Positions 1-18,464 of a DNA stretch of 18,464 bases are shown here, one piece after another. Position 1 is the first letter of the stretch. Each line of letters opens with the position of its first letter. The notes under the pieces are model-generated. The model was not told where the DNA came from and did not search any database. It worked only from the letters and a program-made list of their open reading frames with translations. Origin of the DNA: Planctomycetota bacterium (lineage in GTDB: Bacteria > Planctomycetota > UBA8108 > UBA1146); contig JAYZBV010000007.1 in the NCBI GenBank assembly GCA_036338595.1, positions 1-18,464 of the forward strand. The letters are read 5' to 3'. The position numbers and the translations under genes are program-made.

Positions 1-212
1 TTCCACGTGTAGTATGAAGTGGTGCCGTCGATAGCGACCGCGTTGGCTGCGAGTTCGAAGGCCGGGTTGTCGGGATTCGCCTGGTAGACCTGGTACACAC
101 GACTGATCGGGAACACCATCGTTCCATGGCCATATGCGACCGAGCCCAACAATATCGTCATGCCCAGGGAAAGCAGTGCCGCTAACGCGACCGGACTTTT
201 CAATCGCTGCAT
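1..212 (-). CDS. AA10 lytic polysaccharide monooxygenase (chitin/cellulose-binding, LPMO10), N-terminal part; runs off the left edge
   Basis: Manual translation from ATG at 212: MQRLKSPVALAALLSLGMTILLGSVAYG|HGTMVFPISRVYQVYQANPDNPAFELAANAVAIDGTTSYYTW. A 28-aa Sec signal peptide (AYG cleavage site) places His (codon 126-128) at mature position 1. The HG-x-M-x2-P-x-SR...P-x-NP...A-x4-G...Y-x-W pattern is typical of AA10 N-termini. Not in the supplied ORF track. Confidence 0.85.
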   Translation of the reverse strand, partial: MQRLKSPVALAALLSLGMTILLGSVAYGHGTMVFPISRVYQVYQANPDNPAFELAANAVAIDGTTSYYTW

Positions 213-312
213 GGTAAACCCTATCCGTATCGAAATGTTGAGAGCCACAGCCACGCGAGCGCCAAGCGATCTCGATACTTATCTCGATTGCTCTCGCGCT
301 CTAACAGTTCGA

Positions 313-1587
313 TCAGTCGCCGATCAACTTGCGCATCGAGGCCAGTCGCTGCTGCATCTGCTCGGCGGTGATCTTGCCGTCTTTCACCATCTGCTCCATC
401 TTGGCCTGGGCATCTGCATATTGCTGGCGAGTGACGGTCCTTTGTGAAGTTTCTTCCTTCTCGGATGGGCGGCCGATCATCTTGCGCATCCCGGCCAGTC
501 GCTGCTGCATCTGCTCGGCAGTGATCTCGCCGTCTTGCACCATCTTCTCCATCTTGGCCTCGGCTTCTGCATAGTCCTGGCGAGTGACGGTGCGTGGCTT
601 CTCTGATGGGCGGCCGATCATCTTGCGCATCCCGGCCAGTCGCTGCTGCATCTGCTCGGCAGTGATCTCGCCGGCTTCCACCATCTTCTCCATCTTGGCC
701 TGGGCTTCTGCATAGTCCTGGCGAGTGACGGTCCTTTGCGAGGAGTCTTTCTCATCGCTGGCTTCCTTCTCCTCGGAATCCTGCTGCCCCTCTTCCATCA
801 TTTCGATGTAGATCTCGACCGCCTGATCCTCGGTGATCTTTCCCGCAGCGATGCCCTCTTCGAGTCGAGCTCGAATCAACGCCCCACGGCCTCGGTCATC
901 TTTCTCCATCACCTCGATATATTTTTGTCTCGCCTCTTCCCAGGTCATCGCCCCCGATTCGATGGCCGCTTCGAGACGCTTACGCACTCCGGCACCGTCC
1001 ATGCTGCGCTTCTTCTGCGGCTTGGCCTGCTCCTTCTGGTCGGCAGCGCGAGCCTTGTCATCGGCCAGTTTCTTGCGCAATTCCTCAAAGCGGGCACGGC
1101 CCTGCTCACGAGTGATCTCGCCAGCGGCAATCGCCTCACGAAGTTTGATTCCCGCCTCCCGCAGAAGTCGTTCCGTTTCGGCAACCGCTTCATCTGCTTC
1201 TCGTACGGTGCCACGCTCTCGAGTGGCGGCGAGACGCTTGCGCAGCGCCTCCATCCGCTCTCGGCCCTGTTCAGCGGTGATCTCGCGCGCTGCAATCGCC
1301 TCGCGGATCCTGCGTCTCGCCTCCTGCAGGCGGCGTTCCATAACCTCGTCCACATCGTCATCGTCATCGTCAACTTCTCGTTGCTGGTCCGAGTCAGGAT
1401 CGGGATCCTGCCCGACAGAAAAATCGACAGAGCCGGGACTCACTGCGACTGATTTCGCATCACCTATCGATGGAATCGCAAGCAGTGCCCCCAGCAAACC
1501 AGAGAAGAAACAAATGAAAGCGAGATTCGCTGACAAAATGGAACGGGGTTCCTGGTCTCTACCCAGGACTTTGTAGATGTGCTGCAT
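313..1587 (-). CDS. Membrane-anchored or secreted charged helical-repeat protein (7 copies of a 'xx(A/D)G(E/K)IT-x-EQ' SHOCT-like motif), function unknown
   Basis: 424-aa ORF. AGGAGG SD lies 7 nt upstream. N-terminal hydrophobic segment, acidic linker (DDDDDD), then repeated GEITxEQ helical hairpins. Confidence 0.8.
   Translation of the reverse strand: MQHIYKVLGRDQEPRSILSANLAFICFFSGLLGALLAIPSIGDAKSVAVSPGSVDFSVGQDPDPDSDQQREVDDDDDDVDEVMERRLQEARRRIREAIAAREITAEQGRERMEALRKRLAATRERGTVREADEAVAETERLLREAGIKLREAIAAGEITREQGRARFEELRKKLADDKARAADQKEQAKPQKKRSMDGAGVRKRLEAAIESGAMTWEEARQKYIEVMEKDDRGRGALIRARLEEGIAAGKITEDQAVEIYIEMMEEGQQDSEEKEASDEKDSSQRTVTRQDYAEAQAKMEKMVEAGEITAEQMQQRLAGMRKMIGRPSEKPRTVTRQDYAEAEAKMEKMVQDGEITAEQMQQRLAGMRKMIGRPSEKEETSQRTVTRQQYADAQAKMEQMVKDGKITAEQMQQRLASMRKLIGD
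319..738 (-). repeat. Intragenic tandem repeat, 3 units (periods 153 and 141 nt; 51 and 47 aa)
   Basis: gccgatca recurs at 319, 472 and 613. A long identical block gatgggcggccgatcatcttgcgcatcccggccagtcgctgctgcatctgctcggcagtgatctcgcc starts at 464 and 605. Encodes RTVTRQDYAEAQAKMEKMV..GEITAEQMQQRLAGMRKMIG. Confidence 0.95.
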
Positions 1588-1594
1588 CAGAGGA

Positions 1595-1600
1595 CCTCCT
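1595..1600 (-). promoter_or_regulatory. Shine-Dalgarno site (AGGAGG) for the 1587 start
   Basis: cctcct on the + strand, 7 nt from the ATG. Confidence 0.8.
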
Positions 1601-1711
1601 CAGGAAGATAGAAACGATGGTGAAGTGTGAACTCGAATTGATTCCAGTGACAGCACTGACTGCGGATTCCTCGGTGCTGGCACCCTCTCGACATCGATGC
1701 AATTCGAAACA

Positions 1712-3907
1712 TCAGAAGCAGGGCAGACCGTCTGGCGTGGGATCGGGTGCTGGAGTGCCGGTCGGAGGTGGGATCGGTGGAGATCCGGGCACGAACAACG
1801 TGTTCAGGAAGTAGATCTGATCGGTCAGGTTGACGGTTCCGGTGTCATCGGTATCGCACGCCTTCAGGCACTGCGGCGGAACACCGCCGGCAAACAGGTA
1901 GGTGAGACCAAAGATGACATCTGCGAGATTCACCGAATCGTCGCCATTGCAATCTCCCCTGAGAAAGACGGCCTGCTCCAGGAAGGTGATCACTGCCGGA
2001 TCGATGGATGGTCCCGTGGCCACTCCATCGACATAGACGAGATTGTTCACCTGAGAAGGACCCAACCCATCGACAAAGTTCAGTTCTCTGACATCTCCAT
2101 TGACGAATCCCGATGCGGCCACGGAGAAATCGATCGACAGGATCGACCGGTCATCTCCTGCAGGAAGTTCCTGACCGGCAAAGGGAGGTCCGGCATCGAA
2201 GATCACCTGAACCGTGATGTAGCCGCCACTGGTTCCATCGGCAACTTCGACGATCACCTGTTCGGCACCGAGATCACCCGCTTCGGTTCCATCCGTGGTG
2301 ACATTGTTGATATCGAGCAGGTCCGATGGAAATTCCAGAGACAGATCATAGGCTTCCACCTGGGCACTCGACGACAGGAACACCGGCATCACCATCGATG
2401 CCTGCCCTGCGATGGCGGTGGCATCGTCGATGGCGACCGAGATCTCGACGATCGTCACCGAGCAGTTCTCTGCGAGGGAAGCATCGCCAGCCTGCACTCC
2501 CCTGACGCCATACTGGAAGGACCCCGGAGTCACCGCTGGATCAGAGAAACTGATCGCATCGCCGGGCAGCGACGCCAGCGGCAATCCATCCTTCTCGACG
2601 ATCACTTCGTCGTAGGCGACGGGGTTCTGCCATGCCAGGTCAACACCGTTGGCAGTCTGTGCGCAAGCCATGTTGGTCGGTGCTTCGACCAGCGAACCGA
2701 CGGGAGCCAGTACCGGAACATTGACCGTCGAAGGAGAGCCGGGCTTGAACAGGGTCACCGTCGCGATGGCAGCGGTCGGCGGCAGATCCGTGATGATGCG
2801 ATAGTTGTACATGAATCCCCAGCGCAATGCGTTGGCATCCGGATTCTGAATGTACGGCTCCGTGGCCCAGGTCACTCCCGCCGGGGTCACAGCCGAACTC
2901 CACAGGTCGGTGTCGTAGGGCTCACCACTGTGGTGGGCGATGCCGCGATGGCCGACTGCAAAGAGATTCGCCGAGGCAGATACCGGCACCGTGAAGGCAC
3001 CCGCACAACGATCGGAGTTCATGTTGTAGAGCGCGTAATCGTAGCGCCACTGGCCCGATCCCAGATCGGTGACCTTGTATCCGAGCAGCATCAGCCCCTC
3101 GCCGGGGACCCTGACCTCCTCGATCACCACTTCCGGGTCGTAATCCTGCCACGCCTGGATGCCGGGCTCACCCGCCTGGGTCGGAGATCCCGCAACGAAG
3201 TTGAGCGGAAAAGAAGCGGGGTTGCCACCGATGGTGACCTGGCGGTAGGCGACATTGTTATCACCGTTTCCTGCCAGAGCATCATCTGGAGTGACATAGT
3301 GTCCGGTGACGAAGTAAAGAGTGTTCGGATTGAGAGCGGGATCGATCAGCGCCTCTGCCACCTGCAAACGGCGATGGACCGTGTTGGTGAAGGGCGGCAT
3401 CGTAGGATCGACCGGATAAGGAAACACACCGGTATGTGCATTGACCTGCGACCGGGGCCCCAGGTTGGACTGCTGTCCATTGAGGCCCGCTGAATACGGA
3501 TCAGAACAATCGATACCGAGGGTGTCGCAATCGGTCGCCTGGCAGGGACCACAATCGGTGAGGCTGAGCGCACAGAATCCGTGCTTGAGCCATGAAACAC
3601 CGATCTGCTCCAGTACACCATCGTAGAGCCTGTACATCTCCTGCCCGATCACAGGATGAAAACTGTCATTGGCGTGCCACAGCAGTTCTATATCGCCGAT
3701 GTTGCAAGAAGTGGTTCCGACCGAATAGGCATAGATGCCGTTTTCCTGACCGAAGTTCCCCAGTTGTTGAAGGTCAAACAGAAAAACATCGGGAGCCTGA
3801 GCGTTCAGCGAACCCGAGATCATGGCGATAAAAAAGACCCAGATCAGTACTGGGCCTGCATGCGCTGGATCAGAAGACACTGTCGAAGATCTTGAAGATA
3901 TTGACAT
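1712..3907 (-). CDS. Secreted multidomain protein: lysyl-oxidase-like N-domain, beta-sandwich, FN3-like, cohesin-like, C-terminal dockerin-like domain
   Basis: 731 aa. GGGAGGAG SD at 3913-3920. Signal peptide ending SLNA|Q. Cys-rich N-domain (CNIGD...HPVI...YRL...WLKHGFC...CSDPY...NN). FN3-like APTNMAC...W.N..AYD (~2450-2686). Cohesin-like segment with FVDGLG (~1985-2443). Duplicated Ca-binding loops GDCNGDDSVNLAD / CDTDDTGTVNLTD (1712-1966). The CDS is confident; domain labels are by eye. Confidence 0.85.
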   Translation of the reverse strand: MSISSRSSTVSSDPAHAGPVLIWVFFIAMISGSLNAQAPDVFLFDLQQLGNFGQENGIYAYSVGTTSCNIGDIELLWHANDSFHPVIGQEMYRLYDGVLEQIGVSWLKHGFCALSLTDCGPCQATDCDTLGIDCSDPYSAGLNGQQSNLGPRSQVNAHTGVFPYPVDPTMPPFTNTVHRRLQVAEALIDPALNPNTLYFVTGHYVTPDDALAGNGDNNVAYRQVTIGGNPASFPLNFVAGSPTQAGEPGIQAWQDYDPEVVIEEVRVPGEGLMLLGYKVTDLGSGQWRYDYALYNMNSDRCAGAFTVPVSASANLFAVGHRGIAHHSGEPYDTDLWSSAVTPAGVTWATEPYIQNPDANALRWGFMYNYRIITDLPPTAAIATVTLFKPGSPSTVNVPVLAPVGSLVEAPTNMACAQTANGVDLAWQNPVAYDEVIVEKDGLPLASLPGDAISFSDPAVTPGSFQYGVRGVQAGDASLAENCSVTIVEISVAIDDATAIAGQASMVMPVFLSSSAQVEAYDLSLEFPSDLLDINNVTTDGTEAGDLGAEQVIVEVADGTSGGYITVQVIFDAGPPFAGQELPAGDDRSILSIDFSVAASGFVNGDVRELNFVDGLGPSQVNNLVYVDGVATGPSIDPAVITFLEQAVFLRGDCNGDDSVNLADVIFGLTYLFAGGVPPQCLKACDTDDTGTVNLTDQIYFLNTLFVPGSPPIPPPTGTPAPDPTPDGLPCF

Positions 3908-3970: not shown

Positions 3971-4165
3971 CTAGCTGGTGCTCAACATCTCAGGTGGCGG
4001 GCTCACATGATCGATCAACTCATCCAGCTGCGAAGACCTGGCTGCTTCCAGTACCTTCTGGCGGATCCGTTCCTGGATCGCCGCGGCAGACTTCAACTGC
4101 TCCGGGATGCGTGAGGCCAGGCTCTCGCCAGCTCGCTCCAACTTTTCCGGGATGTCGTTGATCAT
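3971..4165 (-). CDS. Small hypothetical protein (64 aa, predicted helical)
   Basis: AGGAG SD (ctcct at 4171-4175) 5 nt upstream of ATG. Fills the gap between two co-directional genes without overlap. Confidence 0.6.
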   Translation of the reverse strand: MINDIPEKLERAGESLASRIPEQLKSAAAIQERIRQKVLEAARSSQLDELIDHVSPPPEMLSTS

Positions 4166-4284
4166 TTCTACTCCTACCCCAAATTCCCATCGACAGAGAA
4201 GTTGGCGGCCATCCCCGACGGCCGCACACGACTCTTCCCGACGATGCTAGGGCGGGCGAACAGGTGAGGCAAGTGCAGTCGATA

Positions 4285-5223
4285 CTATTTTCGAGGCTCT
4301 GAAACGCCGAATTCACGCTCCAGAGGTCCCAGGTGGCCTCCAGAAGCGGTCAGACGCCTCGCCGCCAGATTCACATCTCCGCCCGCCCAGCAGGTCGCGA
4401 TCGCATGCCGTAAGTCACCATGGCAACTGGAGATCGACTCATCGGCCGTGGTCTTGTCAACCATCGCCAGATCCATGACGATCTGCACCGCTCGATTCCG
4501 CAACTTACGGTTAGAAGCGGTCAATGCGACCATCCGCCCACGATGAATCCAGCCATTCCTGAGTGCACAGATCGTCGATGCCCGCTGCAACAATCGATGC
4601 GTGGCAGTGGCAGCCTTGAGACGCGTCGAGCCGGCGACCGGCTCCGCTCCGGTGTCGAGCACGATGCGAAGTGAGGAGCCGATGGCGGCATCGGGGTCAC
4701 AGGTGATGAACACGGTATCGGCTGACGCCTCTGCTGCAGCAGTGAGTCCTTCGCGAACCCACGCAGCCGATCCCGAGGCACTGATCCCGATGACCAGGTC
4801 TCCAGCACCGGTGGCCACTTCTGCGATGCGATCCCGAGCCGCCTGTCCATCGTCCTCGGCACCTTCCTGGGCTGCGGTCAAAGCCGCATCTCCTCCGGCG
4901 ATCAGTGCCAGTCTGCGATCGGTTGCAATCGAGAAGGTCGGTCCCCACTCCGCCATGTCGAGTGCCAGCAGTCGTCCGCTCGTTCCTGCGCCCAGGCCGA
5001 TGACACGACCCGTTTCTCCGGCAAGGGTTCTTGCCATCCGCTCCGACAGTTCAAGAATTCCCTCACGCGCTTGGCTCAACGCTCGCTGAACCGTGGGCTC
5101 CTGCTGCTCGAACAGTTGCCACAGTTGTTCGGGGTCCGATATTGCTGCTGCAGTCGGGTCGACCTGTTCCGTCGAGGGGCCATCGATCAAAGCCCACCGC
5201 CAGGGCCCTGGATTCGTCTCCAT
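4285..5223 (-). CDS. murQ: N-acetylmuramic acid 6-phosphate etherase (MurQ family, SIS domain), divergent
   Basis: Motifs STEQVDP, GAGTSGRL..LD.AE..PTF, LIAGG..A...A.EGAED, GISASG, TGAE.VAGSTRLKA, MV...ASN.KL..RA. The ORF-track start (5460) lies deep inside the upstream gene. The likely start is ATG 5223 or TTG 5190 (TTGA overlap). Confidence 0.85.
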   Translation of the reverse strand: METNPGPWRWALIDGPSTEQVDPTAAAISDPEQLWQLFEQQEPTVQRALSQAREGILELSERMARTLAGETGRVIGLGAGTSGRLLALDMAEWGPTFSIATDRRLALIAGGDAALTAAQEGAEDDGQAARDRIAEVATGAGDLVIGISASGSAAWVREGLTAAAEASADTVFITCDPDAAIGSSLRIVLDTGAEPVAGSTRLKAATATHRLLQRASTICALRNGWIHRGRMVALTASNRKLRNRAVQIVMDLAMVDKTTADESISSCHGDLRHAIATCWAGGDVNLAARRLTASGGHLGPLEREFGVSEPRK

Positions 5224-6173
5224 ACCCGGCCGATCTCGGTGCGAGTTTGCTTTTCCCACGGTGCGTGCGGGTAGTCCTTGAGGATTTTCTCGAGTGCGGA
5301 AGCGGCCTCCCCGAGACGGTTCTTTTGCTCCAGTTGCTTCGCTTTTGCCATCGCTTCTCGCCATCGCTTCTCCACGATCCCGAGCACCTCGAGCCGACGC
5401 TGAGCCGGCGGAGACGCGGATGGAAGCGCAAGTTCGGCCACCTGAGAGAGCAGCCGACAACAGCTGGCGGTGTCATCCTTACCGAGCACGAGGGTCGCCC
5501 GGTCGAGCAGTTTGGTGGCGGCATCCCACTTCCTCGACAGCACGATGCTCTCCCTGGAGGCGTTTCGTAACACCTTCTTCAGGGCGCTGGTGGAGAGTTT
5601 CTTGCCCGCATGCTTGGCTCGTTGGCGGCCAAACTGATCGAGAATGCCGACGACAGTTGTGGATGAAGGGGTACCGAGAGAGGTGCTGAGAAGTTGCTGC
5701 ACCTTTTGCCTCGACCATCGGTGCGAATCGTCATCGGGGGAGGCGTCATCCAGTTTCGGTTCGGCAGGCCAGCCCCAGCCGCCGCCAGCGTCCGGTTTCC
5801 ACACGACCCGTACCAGCACCACCTTCTCGAGCAACCGAGCGATCGAGGGCGTCTGTATCAACTGATCGAGATGCAGCGCTGGATCGGCATCCGCGGGAGA
5901 TTCGAGCAACACCAGTATCGGCTGGCGCTTCTGCAGAGCACGCGGCAAACCCACTTCCGGATCGAGCCAGCGGCTACCGGCAACGACATCGGCTGCCAGC
6001 GGAGCCGAGGACAGCGGAGCCGAGGACAGCAGTGCCGTGGATAGCAGTGCCGTGGACAGCAGTCCACCCAGCATCAGGATTCGCCAGGTGCCCGTCGATC
6101 GGCCACCAGCGATGGAAGATGCACAGAATTTCTTCAGGTGCTTGCCCGCGTACGGCATCGATCGAGCCTCCAT
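5187..6173 (-). CDS. Secreted protein with thioredoxin-like N-terminal fold (no CxxC) and C-terminal TPR-like helices
   Basis: Signal-like hydrophobic stretch, then RWLD.E.GL.RA....QPILVLL...VVLVRV...VGILDQFG (Trx-like pattern) and A..ALEKILKDYP (TPR-like). Start uncertain: 6293, 6173, 6158 or 6074. Confidence 0.6.
   Translation of the reverse strand: MEARSMPYAGKHLKKFCASSIAGGRSTGTWRILMLGGLLSTALLSTALLSSAPLSSAPLAADVVAGSRWLDPEVGLPRALQKRQPILVLLESPADADPALHLDQLIQTPSIARLLEKVVLVRVVWKPDAGGGWGWPAEPKLDDASPDDDSHRWSRQKVQQLLSTSLGTPSSTTVVGILDQFGRQRAKHAGKKLSTSALKKVLRNASRESIVLSRKWDAATKLLDRATLVLGKDDTASCCRLLSQVAELALPSASPPAQRRLEVLGIVEKRWREAMAKAKQLEQKNRLGEAASALEKILKDYPHAPWEKQTRTEIGRVWRRIQGPGGGL
5997..6063 (-). 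repeat. 15-nt tandem repeat (about 4.5 units) encoding LSTAL-LSTAL-LSSAP-LSSAP in the signal region
   Basis: cagcggagccgagga x2, cagcagtgccgtgga, tagcagtgccgtgga, cagcagt. Confidence 0.9.
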
Positions 6174-6330
6174 TCGAGGCATCAGTCTAATCGGTGGCGC
6201 CAACCGAGGCCATCCCCCCACCTCTTCGACTTGCCCGGAACTCGACCACAGCCCATGATCAGACGGTTGCTCCCCGGACTGTTCGAGGCGCATCTATCGG
6301 CTACCGCTGAAAATTTCGGAGGCTCTCGCC

Positions 6331-14350: not shown

Positions 14351-14420
14351 CAGTTTGTTTCAGGTACTAAGCGTGCCAGGTGGTGCTCTCCTGTGGTGTG
14401 CCCACCGGCAACTCAAAATA

Positions 14421-14444
14421 AGGAAGTCGAGGGAACGAATGCGT
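14421..14444 (+). repeat. 24-nt leader/RBS/start sequence duplicated at 18204-18227
   Basis: AGGAAGTCGAGGGAACGAATGCGT is identical in front of both paralogs. This supports ATG 14439 rather than 14355 as the start. Confidence 0.9.
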
Positions 14445-17400
14445 AAGTTGTTTTTGATCACAACCATGCTCGCTTTTTCTGCCACTGGCCTGTGGGCGCA
14501 AACTGGCGGAGACGAGTGTGTTGTTGCTGACGATATCGCCGTTGCTGGATTTGGTACCTACGTCGTTGCGATGACAAACGTCGGCGCGACCACCGGAACC
14601 GATCCTGCTCCCTCAATTCCCTGTGCAGTTTTTGGCCAGAATACCGATGACATCTGGTTCTCTTTTGTCCCGGATGCCGATGGTGCCATCGATGTCACCA
14701 CCTGCGATCCAGCAAGTTGGGACACCGACCTGCTTCTCTACGATGGATCTGGCGGCTGCGGAGCTCTTCTCGAGTTGGCCTGCAGCGGAGATGCCGTCAC
14801 CAATCCTGGTCCATGCCAGGGCTTCTACTCCGAATTCGATGCGCCGACTGCGGTCACCGGAGGAGTCACCTACTACCTCCGAATCGGTAGCTGGGGTGCC
14901 GCTGGATCTGGTGGAGCTGGCAACCTGACTATCGATTTCTTCGCCGTGGGAGCTGAAATCTGCGACGACGGCGCCGATAACGATGCCGATGGCCTCATCG
15001 ACTGCGCCGATCCTGACTGCATCGGGGTCGGTCTCTGTGGACCCGAGATTTGCGACGACGGATTCGACAACGATGGAGACGGTCTCGTCGACTGTGCCGA
15101 CATCATCGATTGCCCCATTGGATCCCCGCTTTGCCCCCTTGTAAATAACGATGAATGCCTCGGTGCCATCGCCATCGGCCCTGCCGCCGCAGGATTCGGA
15201 GTCTACACGGGATTCATCGATTCGACGCAGGCGAGCGCTTCAGCGAACCCGATTCCAACGATCCCCTGTAATGTGCTGGGAAACCTGGACAACGATGTCT
15301 GGTTCTCCTTCACTCCTGACGCCGATGGCGCCATCACGGTTCATACCTGTGACGCGGCCGGCTACGACACGGATCTGGTCGTCTATGAGGGCGCCGATTG
15401 CACGACGATGGTCGAAGTTGGCTGTAACGGAGATGCCACGATCCTCGTCGGATGCCAGGCGTTCTACAGTCACATTCCTGGCATTTCCGTCGTCGGAGGA
15501 CAGACCTACATGATAAGGGCTGGCTCCTGGGCCCTTGGTGTCACGGGCACGGGTAACATCACGGTCGATTTCTTCTCGATCTCTCCGGAGGTCTGCGATG
15601 ATGGCATCGACAATGATGGTGACGGTCTCATCGACTGTGCTGACACTGTCGACTGTCCCTTCGGAATCCCCCCCTGCGATGCATCAGCCAACGATGAATG
15701 CGATGCCGCGACGGTGATCGATGTCTCAGCAGGTGCCGGCACCTACACCGCATTCATGGATTCGACGCTGGCTTCTGCTTCGGCAAACCCACCCCCGGCG
15801 ATCCCATGTGCGGTCGCCGGTGCTTTCGATAACGATATCTGGTTCCAGTTCACTCCCCCTGTCGATGCGGTCGCCGAGATCCACACCTGCGACCCTGCAG
15901 GTTGGGATACTGACCTGCTCGTCTACGAGGGTCCGGATTGTGCCAGCATGGTCGAAGTGGCCTGTAACGGCGATGCAAATATCATGGCCGGATGCCAGAT
16001 CTTCTACAGCCATGTCCAGTTCGTTCAGTTGACCGGCGGCAACACCTACTTTGTGCGCGTCGGTTCCTTTGGTACTGGAGCCACCGGTACCGGAACACTG
16101 ACCATCAATATGGTCATCCCCGCTGCCGAGATCTGCGATGACGGCATCGATAACGACCTCGATGGATTCATCGACTGCACCGACCCGGATTGTTTCGCAG
16201 ATCCGAGCTGCGTCATCACAGATGGGGACGAGTGCTTCAATGCGCTTTCGGTATTTGAAGGTGCCAATCCCATCGACACCTCCACATACACGCTGGGGGC
16301 CGATCCGGTCGATTACGGTCTTTGCCCCGGTACCCTCGGTGGCAACATGGATCAAGATGGGTGGTACAGCTGGGTCGCTGCCAATGATGGCGCTCACTGG
16401 ATTCATACCTGCGATCCGACTGGTTTCGATAGCGACGTGATCATCTACGAGGGTGCCTGCGACGCTCTGGTGCCGGTCGCCTGTAACGGTGACGACAACC
16501 TTGGACTGATCACTGGTTGCCAGGCATTCTTCTCGTTCATCGAGTTCAACGCCGTGGCAGGAATCGAGTACAAGATACGTATTGGCACCTGGGGAGCGGG
16601 TGGTGGTTTGGGTACCCTGAACATCGTTCCGCTTCTTTGTCCGCCGATGGCAGGGCTTGCCGCAGCCAGTGATTGCACCACCGGTGATGTCACTCTGGGC
16701 TGGACCGCAAACGCATACGACCAGATCGAGATCCTCCGGGATACGGTGCTGATCGATACCGTCGACGGTTCCAATACATCCTATATTGATCCAGGTCTGG
16801 CCTCGGGCAGTTACGTCTACCAGGTCCAGGGAGTCTGTGGCGGCAATGTTGGTGGATCCCAGACGATCACTGCCAATGTTGCATCTTACGGAGGTGAAGC
16901 TCATGTGATCTTCGCCGTTGAGGGTATTGACGATACCGACAGTGTTGCGGCTCTTCAGGCTGCCTTCGATGCCAACGGGATCGGTTATGTGACCACCACC
17001 CTGGGACCCGCTGAATGGGGTTGCCTCGGTAGCGACAGCGTCCAGTGTGCGTGGATGATGTGCGGCACGTACCCCAACGATTACCGCATCAACGATGCGG
17101 ACGGCACAGCACTCGCCTCTGCCGTCGAGAATGGCAAGGGTGTCTACTTCGAGGCCGGAGATCACTGGGGCTTTGCTCACCTGGTCACCGCATACGACAA
17201 TTACGATGGTGTCGATCAAGGAAACGTAGCCGATGGCGATGATTCCTTCACCGCCATGGACGGATACGACTCCGGATTTGGACTCGATGTCAGTGACTTC
17301 ACCGGCACCGCCTACAACCAGGCGAATCCAGGCAACGACTGGACTGACCAGATTCAGCCCGGAGTAGGATCCGGTGGCCCCAATGTCGCTCAGATCTGGA

Positions 17401-17840
17401 GCAGCGTTGGTGGTGGATTCGGCACGGGCAACTTCTACGCCACTGATGATCCGTTCGGAAATACCATCTCTCAATCGTGGGAGTTCGGTGGATTCGGCGG
17501 CGATCAGGTCGACCTGGTAGCGCGCTACATCGCAGCGATGTGCGGCGGCGCTCCTCCTGGAACCGGGTTCCAGAGAGGCGACGCCAACGGCGATGGTGCG
17601 TTCAATATCGCTGACCTGATCTTCCTGCTCGCAGCACTCTTCTCGGGTGGACCGGCTGGGGACTGTGGCGATGCGAATGACGTCAACGATGACGGCAATA
17701 TCAACATTGCCGATGCCATCAACGGTCTCGCTGCACTGTTCAGCGGTGGTCCTACTCCGCCCGACCCGAGTCCGGGTGCGTGCGGTTCGGATCCCACCGA
17801 CGATACGCTCGACTGTGCTTCTTACACAGCCTGCCCCTGA
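14439..17840 (+). CDS. Large secreted Cys/Asp-rich surface protein: 4 beta-rich repeat domains, 4 EICDDG-x-DND-x-DG-x-x-DC-x-D Ca-binding-type repeats, FN3-like, alpha/beta domain, C-terminal dockerin-like domain
   Basis: 1133 aa. Signal peptide [21 protein letters not shown]. Four ~145-aa repeats (DEC..A...D.W(F/Y).F...TCD...DTDL..Y.G..C.....CNGD...C..FYS...Y.IR.GSW). Acidic Cys repeats at 14955, 15045, 15588 and 16128. Dockerin-like [14 protein letters not shown] / [12 protein letters not shown] from 17568. Confidence 0.9.
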
Positions 17841-17954: not shown

Positions 17955-18221
17955 CCACTCTCTCCAGAACGCCGACCTCGCTCTCCACCATTCACAACAC
18001 TACTATGGAACCAAGATCGTTGCAGGAGTCGATCTCTTACTTGAGGTTCACTCTCGCAGTGCTTGGGCTCGAGAATGAAAAACAAAAATGAGAGTTGCGA
18101 TTCACCGATTCACACCGATAGGCGTGCCTTTGTGAACCTCCGGCGATTCATCGCTGCATCGGGAGTTTCCCTCGATGGTGTCGCTTTGAATGGCTCGGAC
18201 TACAGGAAGTCGAGGGAACGA

Positions 18222-18464
18222 ATGCGTCAGTTATTCTTGATCACCAGCATTCTCGCTTTTTCTGCCACCAGCCTTTGGGCGCAAACCGGCGGAGACGAGT
18301 GTGACGTCGCTGATGTAATTTCGATCGCTGGTTTCGGGACCTACGCCATAGCGATGGATAACACCACTGCAACAACGGGAGTCGATCCGGTCCCGGTGAT
18401 CCCATGTGGTGCCTTCATGGGCATTTTCAATCAGGACATCTGGTTCTCCTTTGTCCCGGATGCC
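18222..18464 (+). CDS. Tandem paralog of the 14439-17840 surface protein, N-terminal 81 codons; runs off the right edge
   Basis: [81 protein letters not shown] is colinear with [41 protein letters not shown]...[10 protein letters not shown]. Not in the ORF track. Confidence 0.93.
   Translation, partial: MRQLFLITSILAFSATSLWAQTGGDECDVADVISIAGFGTYAIAMDNTTATTGVDPVPVIPCGAFMGIFNQDIWFSFVPDA

Follow-up and report, generated by a model that had tools for sequence, protein, structure and literature searches.

Do three neighboring genes at one end of a planctomycetal contig encode a conserved oxidative unit built on cohesin-dockerin contacts? The genes lie on contig JAYZBV010000007.1 (assembly GCA_036338595.1). 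The window analyzed here is the whole of this stretch, 18,464 nucleotides (nt), which is the entire contig C7 of the genome that we call G000; G001 upward denote the compared genomes. The G000 assembly holds 2.9 Mb in 114 contigs, is 88.3% complete and 7.2% contaminated, and close homologues carry the label Planctomycetota. Lytic polysaccharide monooxygenases (LPMOs) use H2O2, and lysyl oxidases (LOX) release it. A preliminary description of the sequence had proposed that a LOX-like protein (gene A), a repeat protein (gene B), and an LPMO (gene C) form one system in which the peroxide source is held next to its consumer.

We find that the three genes are a variable patchwork and not a conserved system. 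The real novelty is the large unnamed family of gene A, with a predicted LOX fold and a copper site that is likely rebuilt. Taken as a whole, and with slightly better than even confidence, we hold that the patchwork joins a probable copper/quinone amine oxidase with a rebuilt site (A), the tail of a BlaR1-type protein without its protease (B), and a probable dockerin-tagged LPMO (C).

The three open reading frames (ORFs) are as follows.

1712..3907, minus strand: gene A, 731 residues; secreted LOX-fold module, FN3-like domain, cohesin, and dockerin, from the ORF and the predicted folds.
313..1587, minus strand: gene B, 424 residues; helical-repeat C-terminal half of a sensor of the BlaR1/M56 type, lacking the protease domain.
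1..212, minus strand: gene C, 5′ end of an auxiliary activity family 10 (AA10) LPMO; ATG at 212, signal of 28 residues, His1 at 126-128; truncated where the contig ends.

The gaps are 124 nt (A-B) and 100 nt (B-C), and each gene product has one N-terminal hydrophobic stretch and no further one. The picture of three closely spaced, co-directional genes for exported proteins is thereby confirmed. Small distances are common between genes that run in one direction and do not in themselves prove a system.

The N-terminal module of gene A has a predicted lysyl oxidase fold

What is the N-terminal part of gene A? Residues 37-410 gave no Pfam or NCBIfam match. Relatives of this module made up 2,501 of 8,000 scored candidates. 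At 50% identity, the family comprises 2,059 clusters. The family is present in 54 of 251 genomes of the phylum, with 2-15 matches per genome within the order. G000 has seven such ORFs, each with a dockerin. Two members, P0122 and P0123, carry two tandem LOX-like modules, and the second module of P0122 lacks the Lys and Tyr discussed below.

Using AlphaFold2 (AF2) on 118 sequences, we obtained a two-domain model with a predicted local distance difference test score (pLDDT) of 95.9 and a predicted template modeling score (pTM) of 0.94. The best structural match among 48,161 chains was the catalytic domain of human LOXL2 (5ZE3_B; Z 9.8, root-mean-square deviation [rmsd] 3.7, 164 aligned residues), with model residues 1-222 set against LOXL2 546-763 at 12% identity. 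The next matches of domain 1 were beta-galactosidase-type domains (Z at most 7.4, at most 115 residues aligned). These are the nearest fold neighbors of LOXL2 too (PMC5899467).

3800..3907, minus strand: predicted signal peptide, residues 1-36; a single hydrophobic stretch, with family homology beginning at about residue 37.
3134..3799, minus strand: domain 1, residues 37-258, predicted LOX catalytic fold; structure match to 5ZE3_B and residue conservation.
3584-3586 and 3494-3496, minus strand: K108 and Y138 of domain 1, candidate pair for the lysine tyrosylquinone (LTQ) cofactor.
3656-3658 and 3581-3583, minus strand: near-invariant H84 and H109 of domain 1.
Within domain 1, minus strand: D40, N217, and N218, calcium-site equivalents.
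2705..3121, minus strand: domain 2, residues 263-401, a beta-sandwich accompanying domain 1 in the two-domain model (pTM as above).
2930-2932, minus strand: H326 of domain 2, candidate third metal ligand in the main subfamily.
2444..2680, minus strand: domain that we take to be FN3-like on our own reading; the repeat is present in 34 ORFs of G000.

The model of domain 2 resembles pilin and immunoglobulin (Ig)-like folds. We rejected YcnI/DUF1775, presumably a copper-binding family, for this domain: its Z scores of 8.8-9.3 tie with those of pilins, and YcnI also matches the cohesin of A at Z 9.4. Searching the ESM Atlas returned unnamed clusters below 0.9 only and no named match, and a PDB sequence search with the family profile returned dockerins only. 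In the open-access literature, we found no description of the LOX-like family of A or of a planctomycete LPMO-dockerin fusion.

Cofactor residues are conserved beside a candidate rebuilt copper site

LOX activity requires three His together with the Lys and Tyr that form LTQ (PMC4448552). Are these residues present in A? Across the 258 rows of the family alignment, K108 is conserved in 251, Y138 in 250, and H84 and H109 in 256 each. Among the 28 rows below 36% identity, the Lys, Tyr, and H84 are each kept in 22 and H109 in 24, with four gaps in each case. K108-x-x-F-C and C-x-D-x-Y138 align with the LTQ motifs of canonical LOX. Like lysyl oxidases (PF01186; LOXL2, PDB 5ZE3; the archaeal HTU-LOX, PMC6452851), then, A is secreted, shows the predicted fold over 164 residues, and has Lys and Tyr in LTQ contexts with a Phe after the Lys and a Cys four residues before the Tyr. 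It also has the calcium-site Asp and Asn-Asn pair. The calcium ligands of LOXL2 are D549, E722, D724, N727, and N728 (PMC5899467), and their equivalents in A, assigned by alignment and not by coordinates, are D40 (249/258), D/E209 (257/258), N217 (255/258), and N218 (252/258); no equivalent of D724 was identified in the alignment of A. K108, Y138, H84, H109, and the calcium-site residues are jointly retained down to about 22% identity.

The metal site is where A departs from lysyl oxidases. It has no His-x-His-x-His (HxHxH), has a His in place of Ala beside the Lys, and carries an extra beta-sandwich with a conserved His. H84 stands eight residues ahead of the conserved aromatic Y92, like LOXL2 His630 ahead of Tyr638. 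H109 takes, in the alignment, the place of LOXL2 Ala654, which lies within a patch adjacent to Tyr689 (PMC9659206). H84 and H109 are the only His kept family-wide. For the third ligand, we scored 299 rows, excluding rows gapped at the scored columns. Of the 276 rows of the main subfamily, 270 have H326. It goes missing in the divergent subfamily, where 18 of 23 rows, 17 of them without H326, have a Met four residues before H84, at the spacing of LOXL2 His626. These alignments suggest that the third ligand may have been exchanged between His326 and Met. In a mean-field covariation analysis (300 rows), the pairs S153-Y331, V104-R152, and G50-A140 were among the top 50, while N51-D332 and G53-S327 fell below rank 200. 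Such pairs would weakly suggest that the loop with H326 lies close to that end of domain 1 which holds the Lys and Tyr.

From alignment and model, the balance tips slightly toward A working like a lysyl oxidase. Several results weigh against this. The LOXL2 match, Z 9.8 at 12% identity, is just moderately above background. Among the matches listed by Foldseek for the two-domain model were generic beta-sandwiches only, and not LOXL2. Comparing the family profile with canonical HxHxH LOX of planctomycete genomes gave a collinear, modest alignment (E 0.054); a second comparison reached E 0.0036 over 151 columns, with one of 30 column shuffles scoring higher, and a third gave E 0.0044 with H84 placed elsewhere. 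PF01186 had no match in A or anywhere in G000, and it is not among the 25 commonest of 60 families found for 54 family members. The HxHxH motif that LOX requires is absent: one His (H84) stands there, and a His four residues before it occurs in 1 of 299 rows. Neither H326 nor the Met is found in 11 of the 299 rows, and the His/Met swap is possibly one event because it follows a single subfamily split. For the presumed nearness of H84, H109, H326, and Y138, covariation gave pairs that are only indirect and partly low-ranked. Finally, 13 of 254 family proteins have CxxCH haem motifs, which a dehydrogenase would also explain.

The LOX-like oxidase call made on A hence stands for the predicted fold and the LTQ Lys and Tyr, and falls for the HxHxH copper motif. 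Because the copper motif test failed, the family of A is not a member of PF01186, and because the canonical motif is absent, H2O2 release by A is conjectural. Canonical HxHxH LOX genes occur separately from the A family in 12 of 251 phylum genomes, some with the same dockerin tail. Three genomes from other families of the class (G034, G036, and G032) encode a canonical HxHxH LOX fused to the same C-terminal dockerin, and G034 has both types.

Could the module instead be a quinone dehydrogenase, or depend on a partner for its cofactor, and pass electrons to c-type haem and not to O2, with little H2O2 made? The keeping of only two His family-wide would suit this. So would the CxxCH motifs of those 13 proteins, which lie outside the module, and the fusions to cytochrome c and pyrroloquinoline quinone (PQQ)-type propellers seen in 14 long members, chosen partly for their known domains. 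Nine of the 141 dockerin ORFs of G000 (see below) also carry CxxCH, and five of the scanned cargo proteins are of the CCP/MauG type. Yet the other 241 of 254 family proteins, including all seven in G000, have no CxxCH, and the same haem and propeller domains sit on unrelated dockerin cargo, so they are possibly shuffled accessory modules. We regard the dehydrogenase as unlikely.

It is quite unlikely, in our judgment, that the module descends from LOX but is inactive, with a structural or adhesive role in which the Lys, Tyr, and His bind metal, lend stability, or form a single self cross-link. The missing copper motif, the multiplication of the family within the order in varied adhesin-like architectures, and the pilin- and Ig-like look of domain 2 speak for such a role. 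The joint retention of K108, Y138, H84, H109, and the calcium residues at about 22% identity speaks against it, as an active site would give that pattern, and so does the His326/Met exchange, which is as expected of an active site.

Gene A carries a predicted cohesin and dockerin and probably belongs to a large network

The preliminary description had proposed a cohesin-dockerin surface system. We modeled residues 489-731 by AF2 from 38 sequences (pLDDT 90.5).

1973..2443, minus strand: cohesin module, residues 489-645; 4UYP_A match, Foldseek E 2e-8.
1715..1972, minus strand: C-terminal dockerin, residues 646-731; 5M2O_B match, PF00404 E 0.029, below cut-off.

The cohesin matched 4UYP_A (Z 17.6, rmsd 1.8, 139 aligned), and the top 20 matches were all cohesins or cohesin-type modules. 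The dockerin matched 5M2O_B over 70 of 74 residues (Z 9.9, rmsd 1.7), with the duplicated calcium-loop/helix fold. Both assignments hold.

How widespread are these modules in G000? Iterated profiles found 141 dockerin ORFs (135 of them C-terminal) and 45 cohesin ORFs with 70 modules, counts that may be slightly inflated by contig C59, which duplicates the murQ-A-B block. The Pfam cohesin model hit six places at E up to 1, one of them above cut-off. Two to three cohesin-like modules occur in 20 ORFs, and none is larger; the fold was checked for the module of A alone. Two regions, G000:C15:21000-42600 and C19:34000-52000, hold arrays of genes for secreted proteins that consist of nothing but 1-3 cohesins and a dockerin.

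Of the dockerin ORFs, 99 have over 200 further residues, and we scanned the cargo of 93 of these (E 1e-5). No glycoside hydrolase was found among these 93. Matches were to M4 (two) and M12B peptidases, purple acid phosphatases (two), endonuclease I, arylsulfotransferases (two), and PQQ-type propeller, FG-GAP, and HYR proteins. Seven of the 93 matched di-haem peroxidase families, CCP/MauG (five) and DHOR (two). These proteins are possible peroxide sinks or cofactor-maturation enzymes on the network. The seven lie on contigs C108, C54, C60, C95, C114, C92, and C102. Another dockerin protein (G000:C49:77-2128) contains CxxCH five times and matched no Pfam family at 1e-5. At G000:C33:5300-6157 and C93:2113-2895, dockerins are joined to zf-HC2 anti-sigma-type zinc fingers, as would suit a sensor of the docking state.

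G000 encodes haem-copper oxidase subunit I, which upholds the aerobic setting proposed for the locus. With 141 tagged ORFs across the genome, the dockerin shows no special pairing. A likely docks onto a cell-surface protein network that likely also carries the LPMO.

The nearest described system is the hypothetical "planctosome" of freshwater Nemodlikiaceae (Andrei et al. 2019, PMC6461901). Like the network of G000, it has cohesins and dockerins without cellulases, and M12B peptidase, HYR, P-domain, and lamin-tail cargo. In contrast, the network of G000 is far larger (the 141 dockerin and 45 cohesin ORFs above), and its redox cargo comprises LOX-fold proteins, di-haem peroxidases, and an LPMO, none of which is named in the excerpt of PMC6461901. 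With clostridial and ruminococcal cellulosomes, G000 shares the cohesin and dockerin folds and adaptors that combine both modules. It differs from them in its aerobic oxidase gene, in having at most three cohesins per ORF, and in the absence of glycoside hydrolases from the 93 cargo proteins scanned.

Gene C is the start of an AA10 LPMO whose orthologues carry a dockerin

The fragment of gene C holds 28 signal and 42 mature residues and starts with His-Gly after the signal. On this fragment, too short for proper scoring, PF03067 gave E 0.065; whole orthologues score above the cut-off. Does the LPMO have a dockerin? The orthologues, about 322 residues long, consist of an AA10 domain plus a dockerin and have His1, the His of T-A-x-H, and the distal/C-terminal Phe. 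The histidine brace and PF03067 are found in orthologues 85-96% identical over the shared part; the window itself holds His1 only. A C-terminal dockerin was present in 15 of 16 genomes with whole LPMO homologues (that of G018 on a second contig), and the LPMO tails align with both dockerin loop motifs. The dockerin check raised for the LPMO hence came out positively, and the LPMO of the window very likely carries one like its orthologues.

PF03067 was found in 14 of 41 relatives and, across the phylum, in 5 of 251 genomes, and the closest solved structures to the AA10 orthologues are PDB 7ZJB and 6IF7. The orthologues resemble AA10 LPMOs in His1, the T-A-x-H His, and the C-terminal Phe, but carry a C-terminal dockerin rather than a carbohydrate-binding module, and no chitinase was found in the hosts searched. 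Glycoside hydrolase family 18 (GH18) was absent from G000 and five LPMO-bearing relatives, and GH5 from G000 (genomes 88-94% complete). Planctomycetal AA10s are known, 80% of them outside clusters of carbohydrate-active enzyme (CAZyme) genes (Klimek et al. 2024, PMC11131199). The words "dockerin" and "cohesin" do not occur in the main text of that paper, whose AA10 modularity is given in Fig. 4 and additional files and may be relevant to the dockerin fusion.

LPMO identities are 94-98% without genus structure, as against 81-93% for A; these values would fit gene flow or simple conservation.

Gene B is the tail of a BlaR1/M56 sensor

Is repeat protein B a member of the cohesin-dockerin oxidative unit? 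Its sequence contains neither a cohesin nor a dockerin. Of 72 homologues, 26 carry PF05569, the M56 domain of BlaR1; B itself has no PF05569 match. B begins just past that domain and aligns with the post-M56 hydrophobic stretch and C-terminal repeats of BlaR1-type proteins.

1588..1711, minus strand: A-B spacer; deletion scar from which blaI and the M56 domain were removed, with a decayed M56-end trace in one frame and a stop inside.
213..312, minus strand: B-C spacer; imperfect hairpin, single copy in the genome; LPMO-less relatives diverge at about 303.

The copy of B in G018 retains a longer M56 trace, and the A-B spacer here contains a decayed one. Among 14 other genomes with an A orthologue, 10 have a blaI gene after A; it is lacking in G001, G004, and G007, and in G002 the contig ends. 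The window copy of the locus also has no blaI. B thus resembles BlaI/BlaR1 (PF03965/PF05569) pairs in the hydrophobic stretch, the C-terminal repeats, and the blaI upstream in relatives, and differs from them in having no M56 protease domain and no blaI at this copy. B is the tail of a BlaR1/M56 sensor with the protease deleted, a regulatory remnant and no part of a cohesin-dockerin or oxidative unit, so its proposed membership must be dropped. A purine-rich ribosome-binding sequence is kept, and the B protein may still be produced.

The three-gene order is a variable patchwork

Is the order conserved in other genomes? A-(blaI)-B-LPMO occurs in 3 of 16 other LPMO genomes (G001, G007, and G018), so that it is known in four genomes of two genera, G000 included. 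In G029, an A paralogue lies 6.3 kb from the LPMO on the opposite strand. In 12 of the 16, no family gene was found near the LPMO, in stretches with flanks from less than 1 kb to about 10 kb. Four genomes (G006, G008, G012, and G024, from both genera) have the LPMO after an AhpC/TSA gene and A on a different contig. At this other LPMO locus, a GC-rich terminator-like hairpin stands about 25 nt before the LPMO ATG, and two genes that we take to be gapA-like follow on the opposite strand.

Starting from the family of A, we found an LPMO within 3 kb at 0 of 80 loci, and for 63 of these the downstream sequence was 2.6 kb or longer; the positive control, the window itself, was recovered. In the closest relative, G004, where A is 96% identical, A and B are present with no LPMO after B, and the sequence diverges at about 303, just past the B stop. 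Only some lineages have the LPMO next to B. We considered and rejected an integron-like or repeated recombination site where B and the LPMO meet, the hairpin being single-copy in G000.

The claim of conserved linkage is contradicted by these counts. That of co-occurrence holds in one direction: all 16 LPMO genomes contain the family, whereas no LPMO match was obtained in 49 of the 54 genomes that bear the family (kin among them are not independent). The former count weighs against a pure patchwork, as dependence of the LPMO on the family remains conceivable.

Are the genes co-transcribed? We compared 4 of 7 listed RNA-library runs, in which all contigs came from related strains; contigs of this kind are no proof of transcripts, as DNA can occur in such libraries. 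Library X1 held pieces of A, B, and the LPMO, and X3 pieces of A. Contigs of X1 and X3, from two studies, cover the 5′ part of A together with a 64-residue ORF upstream of it; their ends at 4200 and 4192 weakly hint that a start lies near there. No contig bridges A-B or B-LPMO, in a cover so patchy that this proves nothing.

For a dedicated system in which the cohesin of A would hold the LPMO dockerin, H2O2 from the LOX head would drive the LPMO, and the genes would be linked for this reason, one can cite the cohesin fold, the dockerin in 15 of 16 genomes, the four genomes with the order, the family in every LPMO genome, and the pieces of all three genes in one RNA library, but with the order labile (missing in 13 of 16 genomes with an LPMO and from 80 of 80 family loci), no LPMO match in 49 of 54 family genomes, about 140 other dockerin proteins competing for one cohesin, no GH18 or GH5 in the genomes named above, and B unrelated to the system, such a special pairing is very unlikely.

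A proposed mechanism for gene A and its significance

How would the favored amine oxidase work? Exported A would bind Ca via D40, D209, N217, and N218, and Cu via H84, H109, and H326 of the second domain, with Met at four residues before H84 in the divergent subfamily. LTQ would form from Y138 and K108. By oxidation, the enzyme would turn peptidyl lysine or another primary amine into an aldehyde and set free NH3 and H2O2. Through its dockerin, A would attach to adaptor proteins with 2-3 cohesins, and its own cohesin could recruit one more of the roughly 140 dockerin-tagged proteins. The likeliest job would be cross-linking or modifying a proteinaceous surface mesh or a bound protein substrate. 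Peroxide might be shared with nearby docked proteins, more often di-haem peroxidases than the single LPMO.

Extending this to the whole family (about 2,000 clusters), we tentatively propose LTQ copper amine oxidases without HxHxH, with a Cu site of H84, H109, and a second-domain ligand, placed on an aerobic cohesin-dockerin assembly and feeding H2O2 to co-docked LPMOs and di-haem peroxidases by promiscuous docking, with no operon. We hold this wider proposal to be doubtful.

LTQ enzymes are defined by one copper motif. If the reading of A is true, a large multi-copy family of bacteria, with the cofactor residues retained and the metal site rebuilt, would widen LTQ chemistry and offer bacterial proteins for the study of LTQ formation. 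Prokaryotic LOX genes mostly encode simple single-domain proteins of unknown role (PMC4448552, PMC6452851), and how LTQ forms is unresolved for LOXL2 (PMC5899467). The natural AA10-dockerin fusions, together with the aerobic oxidase gene, suggest that cohesin-dockerin assemblies can bear oxidative enzymes. The negative result counts too: the three-gene run is not to be listed as a conserved system.

Neighboring features of the locus

The co-directional run exceeds three genes. The 64-residue ORF, murQ (NF003915 match above cut-off), and an ORF at 5187-6293 lie upstream of A on the same strand.

3971..4165, minus strand: 64-residue ORF directly upstream of A; no Pfam match, similar DNA upstream of A in relatives.

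Searching the locus for sigma-70 promoters, we found none, and the terminator-like matches all lie inside genes. Contig C59 (G000:C59:1-13037) holds a second complete murQ-A-blaI-B block whose A is 83% identical; given the contamination of the bin, it is probably DNA of a related organism. Further along the window, 14355-17840 (plus strand) encodes an 1161-residue protein with a dockerin, galactose-binding-like domains, and acidic double-disulfide repeats, and 18063-18464 (plus strand) holds the first part of a similar gene that the contig end truncates.

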